Positions 2,198-59,520 of a stretch of DNA of 64,000 bases are shown here, one piece after another (position 1 is the stretch's first letter; each line of letters opens with the position of its first letter). The position numbers were made by a program, and so were the translations under genes. The notes under the pieces were generated by a model. It had not been told where the DNA came from. It was given only the letters and a program-made list of their open reading frames with translations, and ran no database searches. Source of the DNA: Chrysemys picta bellii (taxonomy: Eukaryota); assembly GCF_011386835.1 (NCBI RefSeq), contig NC_088791.1:88536001-88600000 (forward strand). The letters are read 5' to 3'.

Positions 2198-3841
2198 TTA
2201 TAGCCCTTGTTCCTCAGTTTCTACTGGTTTGTACAATATCATCATTTGTTGATATGTAACCTGACTAGCCAATCTTCGGACTACCGCAACCAAGCAAGGG
2301 GTAAAGCAAGCGAGAGTTAATAGGGTGGTTACAAAGAATATAAAAAGGAGAAAACCTTTTCGTAGCCATCCCAATTGTGGCAGCCAGGAGGTAAACCAAT
2401 CTGTGTCCCACCCACCCCAGGTCTGTACTGGGACATGGGCTATCTTTCTCATTTCCTTTGTTAACTGTTTTACTGCCTGACCATTATCTATTTGTAAGCA
2501 GCAGTTAGACTCATTTAGTTTTGCACAGAGTCCTCCTTCCTCTGCTAGCAAGTAGTCAAGAACTATGTGGTGTTGAAGAATTGCATGTCTCATTTGAGTT
2601 GATTGATCGGCCAAAAGGTCCAGTACCGCGGCTGTTTGGTTGGTTAATATTTCCAAGATAGCCTGCAGCCTAATGATTCGGTTGAGATTATAGATTGGTT
2701 CCCTGGCTCCTGTTACTAGCTCACTAGGGTTCCAGGTGGCCGGTCCATAATGTTTGATGATCCTTTCAGGGGGCCATTCCTGAGCTCCCCAAGTTTGGGA
2801 ACTCCCGGCAGTCAAAGTGGAGTCCACAAACCATTTTTCTCTAATTAAATCATCATAAACTTTAATTCCCAACCTATTTCCTTGGTTTTGAGGTAGTAAA
2901 AAGAATAGAGGCCTAATATATCCTACATAACATATTCCTGACCAGTTTGGAGGCAATCTGCGATAAGCATAGGATCCACAGATCCAATAATGACCTTTCA
3001 AGGCCCAGATTCCATTAGCAAAGGGGCCATCCCAGGTCTCGGGGTTGTCTGCAGGGCCCGGCTCCTCATAATACAAAGCGTTACCTGATTCTATGGGCCC
3101 CCCGAGAAAATTATCTACGTCCGGATTACAGTAATCACATTTCCATGCCCCAGCCCTCGCCTTCCAGACACAGTTGCAACCAAATCTTGGGCTATTGGTA
3201 CTAGACCAAAATTGTTTAAAATGTGTCACTCGGGTTCCATTAGGGTGCTGCCATGCCCACTGATACCATCGTACCACGTGGTCCTTACTAGTGGTGTTAT
3301 CTCGCTGGCAACTTAAAAAGAGGGCATCAAAGTACCCATCCAATCCTACTGCCTTACAACCATCACCCGTATGATTCCAGTAGGAACATCTTACCCAGCT
3401 ATTATTAGTCAGCTTTACATGGGTATGGTTCCAGCGTCCCTGATACTTAAAACAGTCATACGGGCGACAGTAGGGATCCCAGCAATCAAATCCGAGAGAT
3501 AAAGTCCAGTTGCACGTACTTTCTCCCACATACTTTCCTTCGCGCTTTGTTCGATTAAGGCAAAAGACACCCATTCCAGTAAAATAGAGCCGCCAAGGGT
3601 CACTATCCTCAGTCCACCGTCCCATTCCATTATGCACTATGCTTAAGTTGCTTAGCCACCATTTGGGCTGCACTGGCTGGGCTACCCAGGGCCACTCATT
3701 TAATTCTCCTGGACCGCCACATACCCAACAATTGGTAAGGTTAAAGGAATCTGCTATTATTTCCCCTAATTGCAAAAACCTATTTTTCCAACCATATGAA
3801 TCACTGAATATACATAACAGAATTACAAGGGATAGCTTCAT
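2198..3841 (-). CDS. env: Retroviral envelope glycoprotein (547 aa, open; furin site appears mutated)
   Basis: Hydrophobic signal peptide, CWVC (CxxC) motif, ERV3-like WPPERII..YGPATW and NRIIRLQA motifs, ISD-like LQHHIVLDYLLAEEGG, C-x7-CC and a C-terminal TM helix. Confidence 0.95.
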   Translation of the reverse strand: MKLSLVILLCIFSDSYGWKNRFLQLGEIIADSFNLTNCWVCGGPGELNEWPWVAQPVQPKWWLSNLSIVHNGMGRWTEDSDPWRLYFTGMGVFCLNRTKREGKYVGESTCNWTLSLGFDCWDPYCRPYDCFKYQGRWNHTHVKLTNNSWVRCSYWNHTGDGCKAVGLDGYFDALFLSCQRDNTTSKDHVVRWYQWAWQHPNGTRVTHFKQFWSSTNSPRFGCNCVWKARAGAWKCDYCNPDVDNFLGGPIESGNALYYEEPGPADNPETWDGPFANGIWALKGHYWICGSYAYRRLPPNWSGICYVGYIRPLFFLLPQNQGNRLGIKVYDDLIREKWFVDSTLTAGSSQTWGAQEWPPERIIKHYGPATWNPSELVTGAREPIYNLNRIIRLQAILEILTNQTAAVLDLLADQSTQMRHAILQHHIVLDYLLAEEGGLCAKLNESNCCLQIDNGQAVKQLTKEMRKIAHVPVQTWGGWDTDWFTSWLPQLGWLRKGFLLFIFFVTTLLTLACFTPCLVAVVRRLASQVTYQQMMILYKPVETEEQGL

Positions 3842-6800
3842 TGTCCCTTTCTTCTAAACAGTCCCTTTAGTCCCTCTAGTCCTTGGTACTCCCAGATGGA
3901 GTCTTCACCTGTGCCATCCCGGGCTTCCAGAGCCGGAGTGGACAGAGGGCTGTTGTCCTCTTCGGTTGTGTTGCTCTCCGGGTTTGGATTCAGAAACCGC
4001 TTTACTCGTGTATGATGTGTCCACTTGTCGCTCCCGAGGACCTTAACGGCGGCCTGGCTGATGAGCGATACAGTGTGCGGACCGTCCCACCGTGGCGTGA
4101 GGGGATCGCGCTTCCACTTTTTGATAAGGACTTGATCACCAATCTGGAAGGAATGCACGGGTTGATCCAAGGGAAGGGTCTGGAAAGACGCCGCGTATCG
4201 ATGTAGCTGTAACAAAACAGATTGTAGCGCAGAAACCTGTTTCCACAAGGTGTCATTCCCTACTTCCCAGTTCACATCCTCTCGGTACCCCGGGATGAGT
4301 ACTCGGGGAGGGAACCCAAAGACCAGTTCAAAGGGTGAAAGTTTCAGACCCTTACACGGGGCCCTCCGAATGCGGGTAAGGGCGAGTGGCAGAGCATCAG
4401 GCCATTTTAAACCGGACTCCATACACAGTTTAGTGAGAGTATCTTTGAGAGTTCTATTCATTCTCTCCACTTGGCCCGAGCTCTGCGGTCTCCAAGGTGT
4501 ATGCAATTTCCATTGGATACCGAGGGCCCGCAACACCTGCTGAACCACCTGAGAGATAAAATGGCTTCCCCGGTCCGACTCAATTACTTCAGGGAGATGG
4601 AAGCGGGGAAGTATTTCATGTAACAGGGCTTTAGTGACTGCCCGTGCTTGACAATGCCGTGTAGGGTAACACTCTACCCACCCAGTAAGTTGGTCAATAA
4701 AAACAAGCAAATACTTATAGCCCCTACAAGGGGGGACTTCAGCAAAGTCCACCTGCCACCTTTGAAAAGGATAGGCAGCCCAGGGCCGGCCTCCCATTGG
4801 GGCGGGGGGGCCGCACCCCTTTTGGTTTGTTTGTTGGCAAATAGAACAGTTATTAACAATTCTTTGGGCTTCCATATGCATACCCAATCCCCTAAGGGAC
4901 CGGGTAGCCAAATCGACCATAGCTCCTGATCCCAAATGTCCCTCCTTATGTAAGGATTGGAGAATTTCCTGGAGTACTGGTCTAGGTACAAAAATCTCCC
5001 CCCCTGGCAACTTCCACCACCCAGAGGGAATTTGTTGGGCCCCTGTGGCTTGCGCGTGAGACACTTCCTCTGTTGTATAGTGGGGAGCAGGGGTTTTGAC
5101 TCCTGTATTTTGGGCCCAGAGAAGCCATGTGGCTCCTCCTTGTGCGGCTTCTTTCGCGGCCTGATCAGCCAATCGATTGTATTTACGCTGTTCGGTTTCA
5201 GGGGCCCTCCCATGTGCACGCACGTGTATCACGGCGACCCGGAGGGGGAGCATCAGGGCCTCAAGTAATGACTTAATAAGGGTCCCATGGGCTATTCTTT
5301 GGCCTGAAGCCGTAATGAAGCCCCTTTCTTTCCACATGGTTCCGTGGGCATGCACCACCATATACGCGTAACGACTGTCGGTATATAAATTAATAGTTTT
5401 CCCAGTTCCCAACCGGAGAGCCTCAATAAGAGCCACCAGCTCCGCCCCCTGGGCAGATAAATTGGGGCTAAGCTTAAACTTGTACACCTCTCCACTTTTA
5501 ACTATGACGGCTGCTCCTGTAAATCGCTTCCCATCTTCTACATAACTAGATCCATCAACATATCCTTCGATATCGGGATTGGGCCAGGGCAAATCTGAGA
5601 GATCAGGGCGAGGTTTAGTCTCTTGTTGCAAGACTTCAATACAATCATGAGTGGGGCGGGCCCTACAGGGAACCTGGGGATCAGGCAGCAAGGTAGCCGG
5701 GTTGAGGGAACTAACTGTCTTGAAAGTCAGGTTAGGGGCCAACAAAAGCCCTACCTCATATCTAGTATGCCGACTAGGATTTAGATGCTTTTCCCCGGCT
5801 CCTGTTCCCAGTATCTGGGGTATCCCATGGGGCACCACAACCTCAGTGTCCCCACCCAGGGTTAATTTTTCAGCCTCCTGTACAAGGAGAGCGGTCGCAG
5901 CCACGGCTCGTAAACAAGCCGGCCAGCCTTTGGCAACCGGGTCCAATACCTTTGAGTAATAACCTATGGGTCGCCAGGTCGGTCCCGACCTTTGGCACAG
6001 GACTCCAGATGCCACCCCTCCCCTCTCGTGAACGTATAGGGTGAACGGCTTCCGGGAATCCGGGAGAGCTAAAGCGGGAGGCTGAACTAAAGCCTTTTTA
6101 AGCTCTTGAAATGCTTTTTCTTTTTCCTTGGTCCATGTCCAGTGGAGCAGACCCTCTTTAGTAAGGGACTCGTATAGTGGTCTGGCCTTCCCTCCGTAGT
6201 CAGGGATCCAAAGCCAGCAAAAACCGGTTAGTCCCAGGAAAGCCCTCAACTCTCTGGGGTTTCGGGGTCGAGGGCTCTCGAGTATAACTTGGATCCTATC
6301 TTTACCCAAGCTACGACGTCCCTGACAAAGATGATACCCGAGAAAAGTGACCTGCTGTTTAACCAATTGGGCTTTTTCCCTGGAAACCTTGTACCCCTGA
6401 GCTCCAAGAAAATTAAGGAGTTCTATAGTCTGCTCTTTACAAGCTGTCTCCCTCTCAGCACTTAAGAGCAGATCATCACAATACTGAACTATGTTGCACG
6501 AGGGGTGTCTAGCCAGGAACGGGGCAAGATCTCTTTTTAGCTGGCTGCCGAAGATCTCGGGTGCACAGGTAAGTCCCTGAGGGACAACAGTCCAGAGATA
6601 CTGAGCCTTGTAATGAGTATCTGGGTCCTCCCATTCAAAGGCAAACAATTTCTGAGACTCCTGATCAAGGGGTATAGAGAAGAAAGCATCTTTTAAATCT
6701 ATTACAGAGAACCAGCTGTGGCTCTTGGGGACTTGGCCCAAGATAGTATGAGGGTTTGGGACAACTGGATAAGGGGCCTCTATTAACTTATTAACCTGTC

Positions 6801-7527
6801 TTAGGTCCTGGACCAATCGATACTGCCCATTAGGCTTAGGCACTCCCATTATCGGAGTATTGTACGGGGAAGTGCCTTCCCTTAGCCAGCTGTACTGTAA
6901 AAACTTTTGAATTAGAGGCTTCAATCCGATCCGAGTGGTTAATTTAAGGGGGTATTGTCGAATTCGGACTGGGCGGCTTCCTTCCTTAAGGGAAATATGC
7001 ACTGGTGGAGCGTTTCGAGCCCGAGCAAAGCCTCCCTCCTCAGCCCAGACTTTAGAGTTAACCCCCGGCAGCTGGTCCCTCTCACTCTCCGGCTGCGCCG
7101 TGGGAGGATTTTCAGCACTCAGAAGGGCCATTTGATAATTAGAAGTTTGTTGTTTAGGAAGCCTAACTTCCATAGTCCCATTATTATTGAACGAGATTTC
7201 TGCCTGTAATTTAGTAAGCACATCTCGTCCTAGCAGCGCAATGGGACAGGAAGGGCTACAAACGAATTGGTGGGAAATATGATGGTCCCCTACTCTCACT
7301 AAGAGGGGAAGAGTTTTTTCCAATTTTATGTTTTGTCCCTCTATCCCTTGAACTATAGCACACCCTTGAGCCCTTGCTTGAGGAGCCTCTGCGAGGGGAA
7401 GCAAACTAAGGGTAGCCCCTGTATCAATAAGGGCTTCAATTGGGCGGCCCCCTACCTTAATTGTTACCATGGGATCCAGGCTGGCGGGCTGTGCCGCCAG
7501 AAGGGGCCGCTGGGTCCCCCGGCCTCC
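3838..7527 (-). CDS. pol: Retroviral Pro-Pol (protease, RT, RNase H, integrase), expressed by readthrough of the gag amber stop
   Basis: Stop-free frame of more than 1210 aa: DTGA protease, LVQDLR and YCDD RT, DGSS/ELVAL/TDSRY RNase H, HHCC plus D-D-35-E integrase. Same frame as gag, following TAG at 7528-7530. Confidence 0.97.
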   Translation of the reverse strand, partial: GGRGTQRPLLAAQPASLDPMVTIKVGGRPIEALIDTGATLSLLPLAEAPQARAQGCAIVQGIEGQNIKLEKTLPLLVRVGDHHISHQFVCSPSCPIALLGRDVLTKLQAEISFNNNGTMEVRLPKQQTSNYQMALLSAENPPTAQPESERDQLPGVNSKVWAEEGGFARARNAPPVHISLKEGSRPVRIRQYPLKLTTRIGLKPLIQKFLQYSWLREGTSPYNTPIMGVPKPNGQYRLVQDLRQVNKLIEAPYPVVPNPHTILGQVPKSHSWFSVIDLKDAFFSIPLDQESQKLFAFEWEDPDTHYKAQYLWTVVPQGLTCAPEIFGSQLKRDLAPFLARHPSCNIVQYCDDLLLSAERETACKEQTIELLNFLGAQGYKVSREKAQLVKQQVTFLGYHLCQGRRSLGKDRIQVILESPRPRNPRELRAFLGLTGFCWLWIPDYGGKARPLYESLTKEGLLHWTWTKEKEKAFQELKKALVQPPALALPDSRKPFTLYVHERGGVASGVLCQRSGPTWRPIGYYSKVLDPVAKGWPACLRAVAATALLVQEAEKLTLGGDTEVVVPHGIPQILGTGAGEKHLNPSRHTRYEVGLLLAPNLTFKTVSSLNPATLLPDPQVPCRARPTHDCIEVLQQETKPRPDLSDLPWPNPDIEGYVDGSSYVEDGKRFTGAAVIVKSGEVYKFKLSPNLSAQGAELVALIEALRLGTGKTINLYTDSRYAYMVVHAHGTMWKERGFITASGQRIAHGTLIKSLLEALMLPLRVAVIHVRAHGRAPETEQRKYNRLADQAAKEAAQGGATWLLWAQNTGVKTPAPHYTTEEVSHAQATGAQQIPSGWWKLPGGEIFVPRPVLQEILQSLHKEGHLGSGAMVDLATRSLRGLGMHMEAQRIVNNCSICQQTNQKGCGPPAPMGGRPWAAYPFQRWQVDFAEVPPCRGYKYLLVFIDQLTGWVECYPTRHCQARAVTKALLHEILPRFHLPEVIESDRGSHFISQVVQQVLRALGIQWKLHTPWRPQSSGQVERMNRTLKDTLTKLCMESGLKWPDALPLALTRIRRAPCKGLKLSPFELVFGFPPRVLIPGYREDVNWEVGNDTLWKQVSALQSVLLQLHRYAASFQTLPLDQPVHSFQIGDQVLIKKWKRDPLTPRWDGPHTVSLISQAAVKVLGSDKWTHHTRVKRFLNPNPESNTTEEDNSPLSTPALEARDGTGEDSIWEYQGLEGLKGLFRRKGQ

Positions 7528-7530
7528 CTA
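7443..7530 (-). promoter_or_regulatory. Gag-pol stop-codon readthrough signal (UAG, 8-nt spacer, predicted pseudoknot)
   Basis: TAG GGAGGCCG followed by complementary blocks GGGACCCAG/CTGGATCCC and GCGGCCCC/GGGGCCGC. The layout resembles the MLV readthrough element. Confidence 0.75.
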
Positions 7531-9169
7531 TACAAACGACTCTTCCGCGCCGTTGTAGAAGATGGGCGCGGGTGGGACTTTGTTTCTATATCCTTCCCCC
7601 ATGGTGTGTCGCTGGGGGCATTCGTTCTTCCAGTGGCCCTCCTCTTTACAGATAGCACATTGATTTAGTCCCAAACGGCGGCCCTTTCCCTTCCCCTGTG
7701 GTCCTGTTTGCCCCTTGCCCCCCTTTTTCTCACTTCCCTCCCTCAGGGCCATCGCTAACATGCGGGCCCCCTTTTTCTGTTCCTCATTGTCTCTGCGATC
7801 ATAGACCTTTAATGCAATCTCTAAGAGCTCCTCTATATTTTTACCCGATGCCCCGTCCAATTTCTGCAACTTTTTCCTAATATCCTCATAGGACTGCCCA
7901 ATAAAGAGGGGAATTAACACCCGCTTCCCATTGGCATCCTCCGGATTGAGGTCTGTGTATCTTTTACAGGTGTTACACAGGCGCTCATAAAAGGCGGCTG
8001 GATTCTCATTCCTTTCCTGTCGAATATTATACAACTTGGCCCAATTTGGAGTCTTTCTAATACAGCGTTTCATCCCCTGTACTATAGCTACAGCATATCT
8101 GCGATGGAGGTCTCGACCCTCCTCAGTATTATGGGCCCAATTGGGCACGGTCTCAGGGAGCTGGTTGGCTAAATCAGCTGCGCTCGCTCCCCCTCCTGCT
8201 AGCCCCTCACGGGCTTTTGAGATGACCAAGCGCCTCTCCTCCGCAGTCAGTAGGGTATTTAGAGCAATTCTCATATCGCCCCAAGTAGGATTATGGGCCG
8301 AGACCAAAGTTTCAAAGACTGCTGTTAGTGGAGCGGGGTCCTCTGTAAACGGGGGGTTCTGGTGCTTCCAGTTATATAGGTCACTTGTAGTAAAGGGGAC
8401 ATATATCATAGTGAGCGCACCTCCGGGGGCTACAGTTTCCCTTAGGGGCAGTTGGTGCACCGGGGCTACCTTTGCCGTTACAGGGCTCTTAATAAAAGTG
8501 AACCGTGTGTCCCCAGGGTTGTACTTATCTGTTAATTTCCATTCCCCCTCAGCCGTCCCGGAGCCAGTTTTGCTCCTAGTGCGGTCAGACACCGCGGAGC
8601 CTGTGGAGCTCGTAGAGGGCTCTGGAGCAGAGGAGTCCTGATCACTGAGATCCTCTCTAATACTTTCTCCTGATCTTTTCGTCGGGGTATCACTTTCAGG
8701 GGAAGGAGACTGTTCTGGCAAGACCGGAGGGCCAGGATACACTGGAGGAGGGGGCATAGGATCAGGGGCAGAAGGAATCACAACTGGTGGACAGAGTTTC
8801 TTAACAGGGGGACGACCAGGGTGCCTAACAGGGGCACGGGCCATTAAGGCCCCAATGGCCTGTGCTTTACATTTTCGCAGCCGGGGGGGTGGGATTGGCT
8901 GCAAGATCCTGCCAAATATCTATATAGGGAAACTGGTCCCAATGTCCATCCCCAGTTACAATGCCATGCACAGCTTGCACAGTTTTTAATTTAAGTGTTC
9001 CCCCAATGGGCCATTCCACCCCAAATGTCGTCCATTCCACAGTACAGAATTTTATCAGATCATCTTTACATAATACCATTACATAATCAGCCTGGCGTCT
9101 AAACGCCTTCCAATTATTTAACATACATTCCAAGGGTGTCCCAGCGTATGTGCTTTGTCCGGACCCCAT
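7528..9169 (-). pseudogene. gag: Retroviral gag with a single frameshift in a C7 run at about 8883-8889
   Basis: MGSGQS myristoylation start (ATG 9169), matrix (EW..FGV.WP..GT), proline-rich region, capsid (VPFTTSDLYNWK, MHR-like QERNENPAAFYERL) and one CCHC knuckle. Split between ORFs 8867-9184 and 7528-8904. Confidence 0.93.
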
Positions 9170-9580
9170 TATGCTTGTATTCAATTAAACCTGGTCACGG
9201 GTTCGACCGACCCCCCTTGCGATCAAGATATCCTAGTCACGGGGTTTCCCCTCGCAGGAGTCTCGGTGCGGCTAGAGTCGGTTTAAGTCCTAGACCTGGT
9301 TATCACAATTTTGGCTTCCAACATATCATTAATATGAAAAAGAACAATATCCCTGCCAAGAATAAAAGCAGGCCCTGGGACTTTTCTACGTCCCAATAAT
9401 TGTCCAGTACAGCCCACGGACTAGTGAAGTTAGTGAAATTATTCATTAGCCGCTGCCTGGTTCAGTTACCATGACCACAAAAGATTTATCCACCTACAAT
9501 ACCTTCCCACACAGGGGTTACCTAAAGGGTCCAACCTACACTGCGGGGGGCGTTATCCCTCAAACCCAAGAGGTAAACGC

Positions 9581-9791: not shown

Positions 9792-9809
9792 GTCCCGGCG
9801 GAGTCGCCA
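9792..9809 (-). promoter_or_regulatory. Primer-binding site complementary to tRNA-Arg(UCU)
   Basis: TGGCGACTCCGCCGGGAC, 3 nt after the 5' LTR. Matches the recalled 3' end ...GTCCCGGCGGAGTCGCCA of vertebrate tRNA-Arg-TCT. Confidence 0.85.
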
Positions 9810-9812
9810 ATT

Positions 9813-10304
9813 TGTTGGCCAAATAGGGCCCGTTTCCCCCCGGAGCTTACCTAATTACACCAAGGAGGCACGGAGAGACAAGAAGACGGGTACCAGGTCC
9901 TTTATTTGTCAGTCAGCTGAGAGGGTGCTCCCATTGGCTCATGCCAGAGGAGAGACACATCTTACAGGGCCAAGCAGGCCCTTTTTTATAACCAGTAACA
10001 AACAACTTAGCCTTGATTCTTTTGCGTCATTACACTGACCTATAGATAATAGGTTACACAGAATACATATATTATTTTGGGGAAGGGGATACAAGAAACA
10101 TCTGTTGCGGATACATTTATCATATTGAAGAGAGAACAAGGTACATCCCTTGACCCTTTGCACTAAATACCTTGGGGAGATATGGAGAAGCAGCTGCATA
10201 TACTTGTGAGCCAAATGAGCCAATTAGCAAATAGCTGACATGGTTAAATGCATGGTTAGATACACATCCTTAATTTTATTTAGATCTCTAGGCCTTTTCC
10301 ATCA
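9813..10304 (-). repeat. ERV 5' LTR
   Basis: Direct repeat of 1675-2166. Minus-strand TATAAAA at 9984-9990 and AATAAA at 9901-9906. Confidence 0.97.
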
Positions 10305-11450
10305 CCGGCTGGGAAAACGGGGGCGGTGCAGGGAAAAGGCTCCCAGCAGGGCTCCAGGGGCACCGAGCACAGCCCGGGGGCAGAAGCCGCGCGAGAGCCG
10401 AGGCTGGGAGCCGGGCGGGTGACGTCATGAGGGGCGGGGCAGGTGGCTGAGGGTGAGGGGAGCTTAGAGAGGGTGACGTAGCTTGGTGACCCCGGGAGCG
10501 GGAGGGGCCATGGGCAGTCCCGCCCCCAGCCCGTCGGACCCTCTCGGCCCGCGCAGCATCGCGGCGTCGACAGAGCCGGGACACGCCCCCTCTCCGCTGT
10601 TACCGCCCCGCCCGCTGCAGCGTCACGTGGCCTCCTCTCGGGTGACTGGGCTAATGGTCGGCAGAGCCCGCTTCCCTCCCGCCGCCGCACCATAGAGCCC
10701 GAGGAGGTCTGTTTCAGACCGGCCCGAGGCGGGCGACGCTCTGGCTGCCAATTTCCGGCACCTCTAAGGCTCTCGGGCCCAACTGGAGGTTCCGGGGCGG
10801 AAGTGGCGCGCGCGTCCCGCCCGCGACCATTGAAGATGGCGGCGAGGCCGAGGAGGCGAGGAGCCGAGGGGACAGCGTAGAAACCGCCGCTCCGCAGCGA
10901 GACAGAGGAGCTCGGCTCCCGCCCTTCAGAGGGGTGAGAGGAGCAGAGCAGGCTGGGAGACAGACCGACCGCTCGCTGTGCTCCTGCGCGTCTCCTCCCC
11001 CCTCCCCGGTAGGGGGAGTGGAGCAGCCCAGGGACCTGCAGGGCCCCCGGGGGTGGGGGGTATCACGGAACTGCAGGAGAGGGAGGGGGGTTCTCCCCCC
11101 TGCCAGGCCACTTCTCCCCCCGCCTGCCGGCGCGCCCAGGCCGGCGGCTCTGCGGGGAAGGAGCCGCGATGCCGGGGAAGTTCTCAGGGGGCGGGGTAAC
11201 GGGGGGCAGGTATCGGTATCAGGCCGGTTGTGGTCAGCAGAGCAAGGGCTTGTTCCCAACCGTATCTGTGTCTCGGGCTCACTGTTGCCTCGGACCTCGT
11301 GTCCTGCAGGCCTGGAGTCTGTACAGGGAGGGGGCTTGTACCTAACTGTCCTGCACAGAGACAAGGTGAAGTTAAGGCTGCGAACACGTTAATGACCCGA
11401 GGGTCTGGTGTCCTCAGGGTGTTCGGAGCGGGATGGTGCGGGAGGTGACC
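10305..11450. promoter_or_regulatory. CpG-island promoter of WBP11
   Basis: Very GC/CpG-rich. Full CRE TGACGTCA 10420-10427, ETS CGGAAGT 10798-10804, YY1 AAGATGGCGGC 10833-10843 and GC boxes. Confidence 0.85.
10830..10933 (+). other. WBP11: Putative non-coding exon 1 of WBP11 (start approximate)
   Basis: Within the CpG island, ending at donor GG|GTGAGA (10934). The next exon has acceptor TTTTCAG| at 13600 and 51 nt of UTR before the ATG. Confidence 0.5.
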
Positions 11451-33950: not shown

Positions 33951-34577
33951 CTCCTCCTTGCCTTCGTCCCATCTATATTGAATTAGCTCACAGGACTCAT
34001 GTTATGGATGACTTTGGCAAAGTTTTAGGGTCAGCTGCTACCCTGACACCATCCTTCTGTCTTTTTCAAACAGGCTTGGGATGGGCTACGGAGGAGTTCA
34101 AGTCATCCTTTAAGCTTCGCTTAGTTAACTAAGTATCACCATAAGGCAAGTTTTCTATTCTTTTAAATATACCTCCCAATTTTTTCCAGATTTCTGCTCA
34201 AGGTAGGCCTTAAACTCACACTGGCTGGGTCAGATTCAAAGGGCTACTACTTATCCCCTTGAGCTTTCCAGCTGGTGTGGATACATATATACTTTTTTAA
34301 TAGACAACATTTTTAAACTTAACTACATCTTAGTTTTTGTCTGGGACACCGAATTAAGACTCAGTGCTTCAATTCAGGTGGTCATTTGCAAGGTGGTTAT
34401 TTCTATACAAATAACCACCTGAATTGAAGCACTGAGTCTTAATTCGGTGTTCCAGACAAAAACTGCTATCATGGGTCAGACCAGTAGTCTGCCTAATCTA
34501 GTATCCTGTCTTGTGACAGTGGTCAATGCCAGGTGCTTCTAAAGGAATGATCAGACCAGGCAATGACTCAGTGAACC

Positions 34578-44400: not shown

Positions 44401-47400
44401 GCTCCTAAATACTCCTCCATAGGAGTTCCCCAAAAATGGGGGGCCTCCTTCTGGCATATGTCAAAGTGCTCGGTAATAGTGGGCAAAGTGCATGCTGGAT
44501 AAAGGGAGGGGGAGGACTTTGACGGCAGGGGAAATGGCAGCATGCTGAAAAAGGCATTTCTTCCAACCTGCTACCTGAGTTCCATGGAAGAGACATGGGG
44601 AGTGAAGGACTCCTTCTCTGGTTGCTTCCTGCTGCTCCCTGGTTTGGTCTCCAGAACTTCCTATCAGCTTGACAGATGTGAACATTCCATTCTGGAGAAC
44701 TTATTTAAAATATCAAATTAAAGTAATCTTTGGTCCTGTGCACTAGATCTCAACTAACTGAATTCAGTAAACTATGTTTTATCTTCCTGCCTTGTTCTGT
44801 TTTCTTGCTAGATAATACACAGGTATAGATATCTGTCTATATTAAACTCTAAGCACCTATGGACATTTTTTTTTAAGTGAGTATTTAAAGTTAAGTTTCT
44901 AAGCTCATATTTAAATAGCAAACTAAGAGGCCCAATTTTTCAAAAGTACTGACCACCCAGCAGCTCCCATTGATTTCACTGAAGCTGCTGGGTATAAATC
45001 ACTTTAGAAAGTCAGAGTCCTGTGGCACCTTTAAGACTAACAGAAGTATTGGAGCATAAGCTTTCGTGGGTGAATACCCACTTCGTCAGACATGCATCTG
45101 ACAGAGTGGGTATTTACCCACGAAAGCTTATGCTCCAATACTTCTGTTAGCCTTAAAGGTGCCACAGGACTCTCTCTGCTTTTTACAGATCCAGACTAAC
45201 ACGGCTACCCCTCTGATACTTTAGAAAGTCAGGTAATTTATTTTAGGTATTTCAGTGTGTATATAGGTGGAGTCTAAGTGTAAGTATGAACTTTTGGAGT
45301 TGGCCCTCTTTTTTTTTTTTTTTTTTTTTTTTTAAAAGGTGTCACAACCAATGAACTCCTTGTCTGGTTCATTTCAAATCTGGCAGAAGAATTCTATCTC
45401 AGTGACATACCTAACTTACCAGTTTTGAGACTGCTAGTTCTTTTTCTGTGGATTGTAAGAGGAGTGTCCCAATCTGGTTTATAGTGCAAACTCCGTTAAC
45501 TTTGGTATTCTTTCCTAACTTCCCTTGTTTCACATTTCAGAGCTATTGAAGGCCCGAAACTCAGTTGGTGAGTAACCAAAAAAAGTTACTTCAGGATCTC
45601 AGTGAAATTACCTCCTTTTTAGTCCAGCATCACATTCTGAAGGTCTGTCCTCTGCTCCGTGTACTTGAAGAACTTACCTCAGTAATGGAGGTGGACAAGC
45701 TAAATCCAGTGTCTTGCCCTCTTGCTGGAGAGGAATGATTATTCAAAGAATGGGTGGGAGGGAACTATAAAAAGGAGAGGAACTGGTGAGCCTTCCTGAA
45801 AGCTGTAGCTCAGTCATAGTCTGTCACCACTGCGTCAAATTCCTTTTTCTTATTATTGGGTTTCTTGGGGACCTGACTAGACCTCATTGCAGGGGGATAA
45901 ATCCACATGAAAGTTAGTAGTTATGCGAAATCATTGGAGTTACTCTAATTTACATTGGTGTCACTGAGAGCAGAGTTTGTGTGTGAAATTGGACAGTACC
46001 TCCCAGAGTGACCTAAAGGGAGTCTCGGCCAATCAAAGTGTGATTTTTTTTTTTTTTTTTTTCTTCCCCGCCCCCTCCCCCCCTGAAAATTGTGTTTGTA
46101 AAAACAGTCCAGTGGGATTCCATAGTTATTGTCTGTCAAGAATTTCCACAGGAAATTTGCTTAATTTACAAATAAAAAGATACCTTTTCAGCCACCAGTT
46201 ATAAAACACAATCTGGGCTCTGAAAGTCCAGCTAGGGTCTTTCCTGCAACCTGAGTGTCTCCAAATTTAAGCCATCACTGACACCTGTGCAACCCCCATT
46301 CAGTGCATTTGGCCAGGTGTAACTGAGATTTAATGAAGACTTCTGTTAATAAACTACAAGAAGGAATGGAATCTAGATAAGAGAGTTATCTGTGTGGCAC
46401 TCACAGGTAAAACTCTGCAAATCTGCAGTTATCCGCTTTATATCCGCCAACCACGTTTGCGGATCACAGATGCAGATACAAATTTTGTATGTGCGCAGAG
46501 CTTTACTCACAGGAGCAAGAAGCAGTATTTTAGTCAGTAAAGTAAGCAGATATAATTTTGGATACACTCAGGGCACAGCTCTGGTGAGTAAGAAGAAACA
46601 ATGTTTACTATAATATGTTTCTACTCTGAAAATTATTTAAGGCTATAGAGGGACCTCAGGGAATCAGGAAGACAGGTAGTGAATGTAGGGGATGCTTCTA
46701 TGAATTGGGTGATGTAGGAAGTGAAAGATCACCCATGTGTGTGTGGGTTTTTTTTTTTTTTACCCCCATGTGTCTCCATTTAACTGTACAGTGCAAATCA
46801 GATTGGATCCTAAAACAGCCCATCCCAACCTTCATATTTCATCGGATTGCCTACGTGTAAACCACACTGACCAGAAGCAAGAGGTGACAGATACTCCGGA
46901 GAGATTTGATGGATGGGCCTGCGTGCTAGGATCTGAAACCCTCAGAGCTGAGAGAGAATATTACTGGGAAGTGTATGTGGGAAATAAGACAGACTGGGAT
47001 CTTGGGGTAACAAACGGGAAGGCTAATAGGAAAGGCTGGCAAGATTTGAAGCCAGAGAATGGGTACTGGGGGATACGATTTTTTAACAATACTGATTATA
47101 TAGCCTTAGTGGATCCTCCAGTTAAACTAAGACTTGGTAAACAGTCTAAAGTAGTTGGGGTTCTCTTGGATGGTAAGGCTCAGAGGTTAAATTTCTATGA
47201 TGTTTCAGAAATGTCTCACATCTACACTTTTACCCTGAATTCCTCTCTGGATGTATACCCCTATTTCTGTCCTGGTCTGAACAAAAATGGGAAAAACAAA
47301 GACCCTCTCCAACTTTGCTTTCCCTCTCATGGCTTCTGTGACCTCATGTCTTCAACTTCCATTCCTTCATCTCCTACCCCCACATTGGAGCTCTTGGGTG

Positions 47401-57743: not shown

Positions 57744-59520
57744 AAACACTCGTGCATTCACCGTAACAGCAGTAACAAATCCTTTCCCCTTTGTGACGAA
57801 ATGGTGAAAGATTACAAAGTAACTTTTAAAAAGTTATTTTGTCGTTTTGAGGGAAGCTAAGAGGAAATATTTTGTGGATACTAAGTATCAGGGGGTAGCC
57901 GTGTTAGTCTGTATCTACAAAAGCAACAAGGAGTCTGGTGGCACCTTAAAGACTAACAGATTTATTTGGGCATAAGCTTTCGTGGGTAAAAACCTCACTT
58001 CCTATGCATCTGAAGTGAGGTTTTTTACCCACGAAAGCTTATGCCCAAATAAATCTGTTAGTGTTTAAGGTGCCTCCAGCCTCCTTGTTGTTTTTGTGGA
58101 TACTGTTTCTAATAGTTCCTCTTGGGAATACTTTCCCCCCTCCCCTGGTACGCTTTAAGTGGTGCTCAGGTCATTCTTTGTTCTGCCTACATACAGAGGG
58201 GGACGAGATCTAGTGTGGGGACAAAGAGTAAATGTTTGGCTTAGAAACAATTACCTGACTGGCTGCGGGAAGCAGAACTAAATTGGTGGAGGGTTTGAAA
58301 AGCCCGCGCTGTGCAAGGATTGGTCCGTCTCCCGCCCGGATTTAAAGCCGGGCATCCTGCGCTGACATACACGTTTAAAATCTGAACACGTATCTTGATG
58401 GGCGGAGGGTGCATGTGAGTCTTCCGTAGTTCTGTTTTCACCGTTGACTAATATACAGCGTGGTTAGCCTTTATCTTTTATTATTCGCTCTCGCTACCAA
58501 TAACCGCCCTAGTGCGTTAGCTATACCTTCTCCCGCTCAATACCTATGCCCGTCTAGTTAATATTAGAAGATCAAAACCGATATTGATGTAGTGAACCAT
58601 CCTGCTATTTATTAATTTAAATTATTTATTAAGAGGACATGTCGGGTAAAGAACCTTAGAATACCAAGGTTTTCAACACAGAAATTACGTATCACTGCAC
58701 AACTGACTCAATCGAAGGTCACATCCACCACACAGATGATGAAATCCCTAATACGTGCAATGCAGGCGTCCTTTCGGGAACAGTACACATTTACTGCACG
58801 GCATATGCTTTTCACTGTGATACTCTAGACACGTTTCCTCAGTCGGGATTTACAACTGTTTAGCGTGCCTTGCAAGGATATTCTTTTCAGTAGTAGTGAG
58901 AACAGCTCCCCCCAAATTTTTCTAACGCTCAAAGATGGCGAAAACAGTCTCTGTGCATTAGCTATAACTTTCAGAAAGTTATGAAACGGAGGACAATAGA
59001 ATGTTTTGTTGGGCATACATAGTATCAAGTGAAACATTCTCTAAGTTAAATCTATATTAGGAGCTCTAATCAAAGCTATAGAGATTAAAAGTATCCTGAT
59101 TTTTTTTAACCTGCTCACAAGGCTCTGGGGAGTTCCTCATATCAGGAACTGTAGGAAAATGAAATGTAGTAAGTCAAGTCAGTTTAGACTTCAAATACCT
59201 TATTCTTATCCTTACTTACCTGCTCTACAGTATTTCCACTACGATACACACTAGAGACTCAGATCAAACACAAACCTATAGCGCTAGACTTCGTGCTCCT
59301 TGGCGAGGGATGGGGGTGACTTTTAGAAGGGAAGTTGGAGTACTCTTTAAAGCAATACATTTAAACCATCCTATTTTAACCACCAAAGAAAATTAGTAAC
59401 TGAAGTAGAGCAAATAAAGCTTTAGTTTGTAGTGAAGTTCTATTTAGGGTTTGTCTGAAAAGGAACTCCTATTTTTCCTATACACTAGCTATTATGTGTA
59501 GATAGAAATAAAATAGTAAT

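Follow-up and report, generated by a model that had tools for sequence, protein, structure and literature searches.

In MoMLV, termination at the gag UAG is slowed by a pseudoknot located 8 nt past it, and this allows a near-cognate tRNA to be accepted. The signal is represented in Rfam by GP_knot1 (RF01073) and, according to a 2026 review (PMC13517186), in the PDB by entry 2LC8. In section 4.1 of that review, a readthrough pseudoknot is described for gammaretroviruses only, and epsilon-type cis-elements are called unclear. A second Rfam family, GP_knot2 (RF01092), covers the REV/SNV-type signal. As reported in PMC13517186 and PMC11262651, a three-stemmed MoMLV pseudoknot was proposed by Huang and Du; its third stem is a computed 3-pair helix inside the long loop. 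Extra interstem sequence is found in frameshift signals. According to PMC5009743 and PMC3835772, Visna-Maedi virus has a 7-nt loop at this place and RSV/ALV a 52-nt interstem loop with a stem 3, and both elements drive -1 frameshifting, not readthrough. The same papers (PMC3835772, PMC5009743) describe the SARS-CoV frameshift pseudoknot, which also has three stems, but with the third in the long loop, and which likewise drives frameshifting. Given the computed MoMLV stem and the Visna-Maedi and RSV/ALV elements, a topology with extra sequence between the two core stems has precedent in recoding.

The window, the whole 64,000-nt stretch of Chrysemys picta bellii DNA that was analysed, carries on its minus strand a young full-length class I ERV (10304-1675, LTR to LTR). 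Its two 492-nt LTRs (5' LTR, 9813-10304; 3' LTR, 1675-2166) align free of gaps with 486 of 492 positions identical and six differences, and both outer flanks read CCGG, a 4-nt target-site duplication. An 18-mer resembling a primer-binding site (9792-9809) begins with TGG 3 nt past the LTR and may match tRNA-Arg(UCU). The matrix frame of gag (8870-9184; Pfam Gag_MA, E 9e-14) is out of frame with the rest, which encodes the capsid and one zinc knuckle (7531-8919; Gag_p30, E 1e-45; zf-CCHC). The two frames part at about 8870-8919, close to a C run; either a biological origin or an assembly error is possible. The pol frame is open over 1229 codons (3841-7527; Pfam protease, RT, RNase H and integrase). 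The env frame is open as well (2201-3853; TLV_coat, E 4e-9); it has a CWVC motif close to its start, and in the C...CC motif of its transmembrane part the cysteines are spaced by 7 residues, not 6. The Gag_p30 capsid, the single knuckle, the gag-stop-pol arrangement, the MLV-type C-terminus of integrase and the TLV_coat env all place the element in class I (gamma/epsilon-related). No second copy of the provirus was found within the 64-kb window. The flanks at 1300-1674 and 10305-11400 have a GC content of 0.59 and 0.70 and a CpG observed/expected ratio of 0.65 and 0.74, and farther away the ratio drops to 0.11 and 0.30; this CpG-island-like stretch around the provirus is possibly a host promoter. 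The window also contains inverted repeats at 34332-34464, 45014-45173 and 57911-58103; they are near-perfect, measure 57-82 nt and have short spacers, and the last two belong to one repeat family.

The gag-pol junction shows the general layout of the MoMLV signal. The UAG given in the first-pass annotation (7530-7528, minus strand) stands in frame between gag (8919-7531) and the 1229-codon pol frame (7527-3841), and it is placed between the gag knuckle and the protease DTG, as in MLV-type signals. The G-rich spacer (7527-7519, 8 nt plus a ninth G) contains six purines among its first eight bases and retains four of the six named MLV bases, namely G1, G2, G5 and C7 but not U6 and A8. The MLV spacer is 8 nt long. 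Since the extra G7519 sits between GGAGGCCG and the S1 drawn at that time, the spacer to that S1 is 9 nt; a register with 8 nt exists, starting at G7519, but is weaker (-9.5 versus -11.1 kcal/mol).

The two core stems could be recovered, although their drawing had to be changed. The S1 strands GGGACCCAG (7518-7510) and CUGGAUCCC (7479-7471) are complementary with one C·A (7514/7475), and the S2 strands GCGGCCCC (7510-7503) and GGGGCCGC (7451-7444) are complementary too. They cannot coexist as given, with eight of nine pairs in S1 and eight in S2, because the 9-pair S1 takes G7510, which S2 needs, and leaves no loop 1. S1 is therefore better drawn as six Watson-Crick pairs plus the C·A (7518-7512 with 7477-7471), with A7475 at the place of the MLV bulge A29. 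The connecting loop of 19 nt was located at 7470-7452 as claimed, and the far end of the element is 7444, not 7443. S2 is then a 7-pair stem (7510-7504/7450-7444), which could be extended to 10 pairs (7510-7501/7453-7444), and the long loop spans 7470-7451. MLV numbering transfers directly for the first 24 bases, so that by positional match A7511 takes the place of A17 and G7510 that of G18. Judged by complementarity only, the three G-C pairs at the S1 base, the single-adenine loop 1 (A7511) and the all-G-C 7-pair S2 of MoMLV are present, and the long loop with its GxUAA keeps G36, U38, A39 and A40 but not G35 (four of five). In both viruses the element codes for the N-terminal region of the protease. 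Compared with MoMLV, the turtle S1 is shorter and bears the C·A, the S2 3' strand (7450-7444) lies in a register 2 nt further downstream, and two C-G pairs are flipped. Helix energies were -11.1, -19.1 and -16.6 kcal/mol for S1, S2 and the third stem S3, and -14.9 and -19.9 kcal/mol for S1 and S2 of the MLV type; the weaker S1 with its C·A counts against the model that we prefer, as does the absence of the MLV-conserved bases U6, A8 and G35.

The main difference is found between the stems. The third perfect stem that had been noticed there stands: S3 (7500-7481, minus strand) pairs CUGGCGG (7500-7494) with CCGCCAG (7487-7481) around a 6-nt loop, with pair probabilities of 0.76-1.0. It is located between the S2 5' strand and the S1 3' strand on two 3-nt linkers. 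The MLV type of S1/S2 junction, free of unpaired bases, is thus absent: S1 and S2 are separated by 26 nt where MoMLV has none, a net difference of +24 nt. The turtle element shares the idea of a third stem with the model of Huang and Du (PMC13517186 and PMC11262651), but S3 has 7-8 pairs and a different position.

For comparison, ten intact gammaretrovirus-type junctions were obtained from 21 loci of an RT motif scan, several of them near-identical MLV-type strains. Left out were L007 and L015, whose frame is interrupted at the junction or close to it, two unrelated loci and seven in which the frame does not reach the protease motif, three of which serve as the outgroup of the tree described below. 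The viral contigs are called gammaretrovirus-type because of the tree, their Rfam matches and the agreement of L005 with the MoMLV pairing that PMC13517186 describes. A three-stem layout with a hairpin between S1 and S2 is absent from these ten junctions. The distance from the stop to the catalytic Asp is 26 residues in ten of ten and 34 here, which is 8 longer. Once 24 nt are skipped, the turtle junction matches 23 of the 28 positions that are invariant in the ten, and two of the five mismatched positions are S2 bases with complementary partners. The reading frame, the Rfam similarity described next, the matched invariant positions and the longer stop-to-Asp distance together support the reading of the junction as a putative MLV-like readthrough site with a 24-nt insertion.

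Rfam GP_knot1 matches 7530-7445 with an E-value of 0.001 and places 25 nt where the model has 3. The scores miss the gathering thresholds of both families (32.3 versus 67.7 bits for GP_knot1, 24.6 versus 80 bits for GP_knot2). All six gammaretrovirus controls reach one of the two cut-offs; L015 and L002 gave no match to either model. The long loop and the S2 3' region of the REV/SNV-type signal are very similar to those of the turtle element, but L018/L032, which passes GP_knot2, lacks the insertion.

Within the 8.6-kb provirus, a relaxed pseudoknot pattern was found only at the gag-pol junction, with three overlapping matches. Of the 8,608 natural 22-nt windows of the provirus, 12 can form a Watson-Crick stem of 7 pairs; they fall at four places, one of which is S3. 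By itself, S3 outdoes 197 of 200 shuffles, in a window picked after the stem had been seen. Nested folding of the whole junction was no better than shuffles (z 0.81, 0.12 and -0.01). It does not give S1, and a spacer that is left free becomes paired with the S2 3' strand; the program is unable to form pseudoknots and also fails to give S1 in the MLV-type control. S3 probably folds, and it may take part in recoding.

The first-pass annotation had named covariation across related ERV copies as a check. Related copies from 4 of 24 listed runs, representing three coded organisms, were placed on 7330-7640 at 80% likeness. Two of these runs, X1 and X19, may be RNA. Variants were phased by summed depths, the depth of one X3 contig being obtained by subtraction. 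The alignment contained no indels in 7394-7531. X1 record 4 has 12 listed differences in 7444-7515, none of them in the 28 visible bases of S1 and S2 and 12 in the other 44; this comparison covers 7444-7515, and 4 of the record's 16 differences are unlisted. In the same record, third codon positions are changed at 0 of 10 sites in visible S1/S2 and at 7 of 14 sites outside (Fisher p 0.01). X3 records 13 and 15, in which all differences are accounted for, support unchanged 7421-7450 and 7502-7515.

In S3, the pair 7495-7486 is G-C in this provirus copy, G·U in X19 record 9 and X7 records 20 and 22, and A-U in X1 record 4, X19 record 8, X3 record 15 and X7 record 21. An A at 7495 opposite a C at 7486 was seen in no contig that could be phased. 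A closing pair, 7493-7488, is gained in related copies, and X7 record 21 has an S3 of eight Watson-Crick pairs with a GNRA-type loop. Each phased variant retains seven or eight S3 pairs. Covariation was thus observed, but the pair 7497-7484 is broken (A·C) in the deepest related subtype. Moreover, the two sites that covary lie at CpG and are third codon positions, so two transitions easily yield the pattern, and the related copies are close kin that amount to about one independent event. For these reasons the copies lend modest support to S3 as a maintained stem.

The insertion is also present in a protein: P0001, a Mauremys gene model, shares the 8-residue insertion and also shows the four residue changes implied by the listed differences in the related copies. 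We conclude from these shared features that the insertion characterises the lineage and not one copy. In the protein searches P0001 was the single turtle protein across the junction, the others beginning at or after the first strand. All four runs contained a second, much deeper contig set that, within 7394-7531, matches from the stop codon downstream, not upstream; it is a related ERV family with another gag end, and its depth should not be read as a number of copies.

An RT tree was built from 24 rows, with 4 of 15 candidate proteins omitted because they lack the anchor motif. It groups the provirus with turtle proteins and a single crocodile protein in a starred clade of six rows (99/99). 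The nearest named proteins come from the turtles Chelydra, Gopherus, Mauremys, Chelonoidis and Emys. The provirus RT lies outside the starred 7-row gammaretrovirus clade (95/96); the deeper forks are weak. An IMG/VR search by protease alone found no relatives among 17 pattern matches. From the 451 matches of a metagenome scan, two loci (33% and 47% identity) were dropped, as their flanks have no retroviral junction.

On the protein side, the element had been proposed to lengthen the N-terminus of the protease. This holds for the reading frame only, as the inserted residues are modelled at low confidence. A monomer model of the protease region, based on a 23-sequence alignment, has a mean pLDDT of 85.6, with residues 7-14 below 50 and order from residue 20 on; it neither supports nor excludes a role for the extra residues. 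A protease cut inside the insert was considered and set aside: if pol were cut after residue 10, its catalytic Asp would come to stand at position 25, the place it has in HIV-1 protease. A proline-hydrophobic-Tyr motif is found about 10 residues before the stop in the Gag tails of five of five relatives compared (P0157-P0160 among the proteins; at about 7549-7575 in the provirus). Judged from the sequence, this is a candidate nucleocapsid/protease cut site, likelier than one inside the insert. The database gene model P0168 (1210 aa) begins Pol at the ATG at 7468-7470, which depends on base 7469, and this base differs in all X7 and X19 contigs that cover it. Such a Pol start probably arose as an artefact when a readthrough gene was annotated.

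We lean towards a model in which an MLV-type core acts at this junction and the insertion is folded aside, as S3, where the stems meet. While the ribosome pauses at UAG with the spacer inside its channel, the three basal G-C pairs of S1 would bring this stem up against the entry pore. A7511 would cross the groove of the 7-pair S2, like A17 of MLV, and S3 would project from the S1/S2 junction on its linkers. Since the inserted 24 nt would fold on themselves as a side hairpin, the two core stems could still meet. S3 would then not be the primary stimulator but a maintained accessory of the structure, which lets the insertion be tolerated and may tune efficiency. As a whole, the predicted pseudoknot likely lets a small share of ribosomes read past UAG into pol. 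Because its gag is broken further upstream, the present copy probably makes no use of the signal.

A different model makes S3 itself essential. S3 would stack on the 10-pair S2, and the resulting near-continuous 17-pair helix or three-way junction would be the barrier, with S1 docking. Nested folding of 7512-7440 does run the 10-pair S2 into S3 (z -2.41, with 5 of 200 shuffles as good), and PMC5009743 describes the interstem element of Visna-Maedi virus as essential. The last extension pair, 7501-7453, is U-A here and C-G in related copies, but both changes are synonymous transitions, and the copies that carry C-G also break the extension pair 7503-7451 (C·A). By general geometry, and by the example of CPK-1 in PMC3835772, a one-base loop 1 suits a 7-pair and not a 10-pair S2. 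We regard an essential S3 as unlikely. The insertion might instead serve the protein as a nucleocapsid/protease linker, which would make S3 a by-product of G+C-rich codons and its covariation a result of CpG decay. Indeed, both covarying sites are CpG, the insert varies freely, with X1 record 4 differing at 6 of 22 nt, and the deepest subtype has lost one S3 pair. The length of the junction stretch differs among other class I proteins too, and the fold model gives the insert low confidence. Against such a by-product speak the rarity of 7-pair stems, with four places in 8.6 kb, and the phased variants, all of which keep seven or eight pairs and never combine A7495 with C7486. A purely protein-driven insertion seems improbable to us.

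It could also be argued that there is no pseudoknot and that the RNA adopts the nested minimum-energy fold, in which case any readthrough would come from the stop-codon context only. The pairing of the spacer with the S2 3' strand dominates the nested ensemble, with pair probabilities near 0.9, but it comes from a program that cannot make pseudoknots, and the spacer is inside the ribosome while UAG is decoded (PMC13517186, section 4.5). In addition, the S1 and S2 strands are unchanged at silent sites. We consider the absence of a pseudoknot hardly credible.

A literature search that covered few subscription papers returned neither a readthrough pseudoknot that has an interstem hairpin nor any readthrough pseudoknot in turtle ERVs. 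Huang and Du are said to have treated elaborated recoding pseudoknots in 2023, which could bear on the novelty of the element. In our preferred model, with S3 as an accessory to an MLV-type core, the turtle element likely works like the MLV signal, yet it misses the Rfam threshold and the empty stem junction. A bolder proposal is that the turtle lineage uses a three-stem pseudoknot whose interstem hairpin is required for, or sets, UAG readthrough. This would be a second structural class, with an MLV core that predates gammaretroviruses and can dispense with direct S1/S2 stacking; we put it forward tentatively and hold it to be possible but doubtful. The known readthrough mechanism is unchanged unless S3 proves essential. 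The hairpin at the stem junction offers a natural test of the need for S1/S2 stacking and for an A17-type triple, and the reach of this signal would be extended if a reptile lineage that falls outside the gammaretrovirus clade has a recognisable MLV core.
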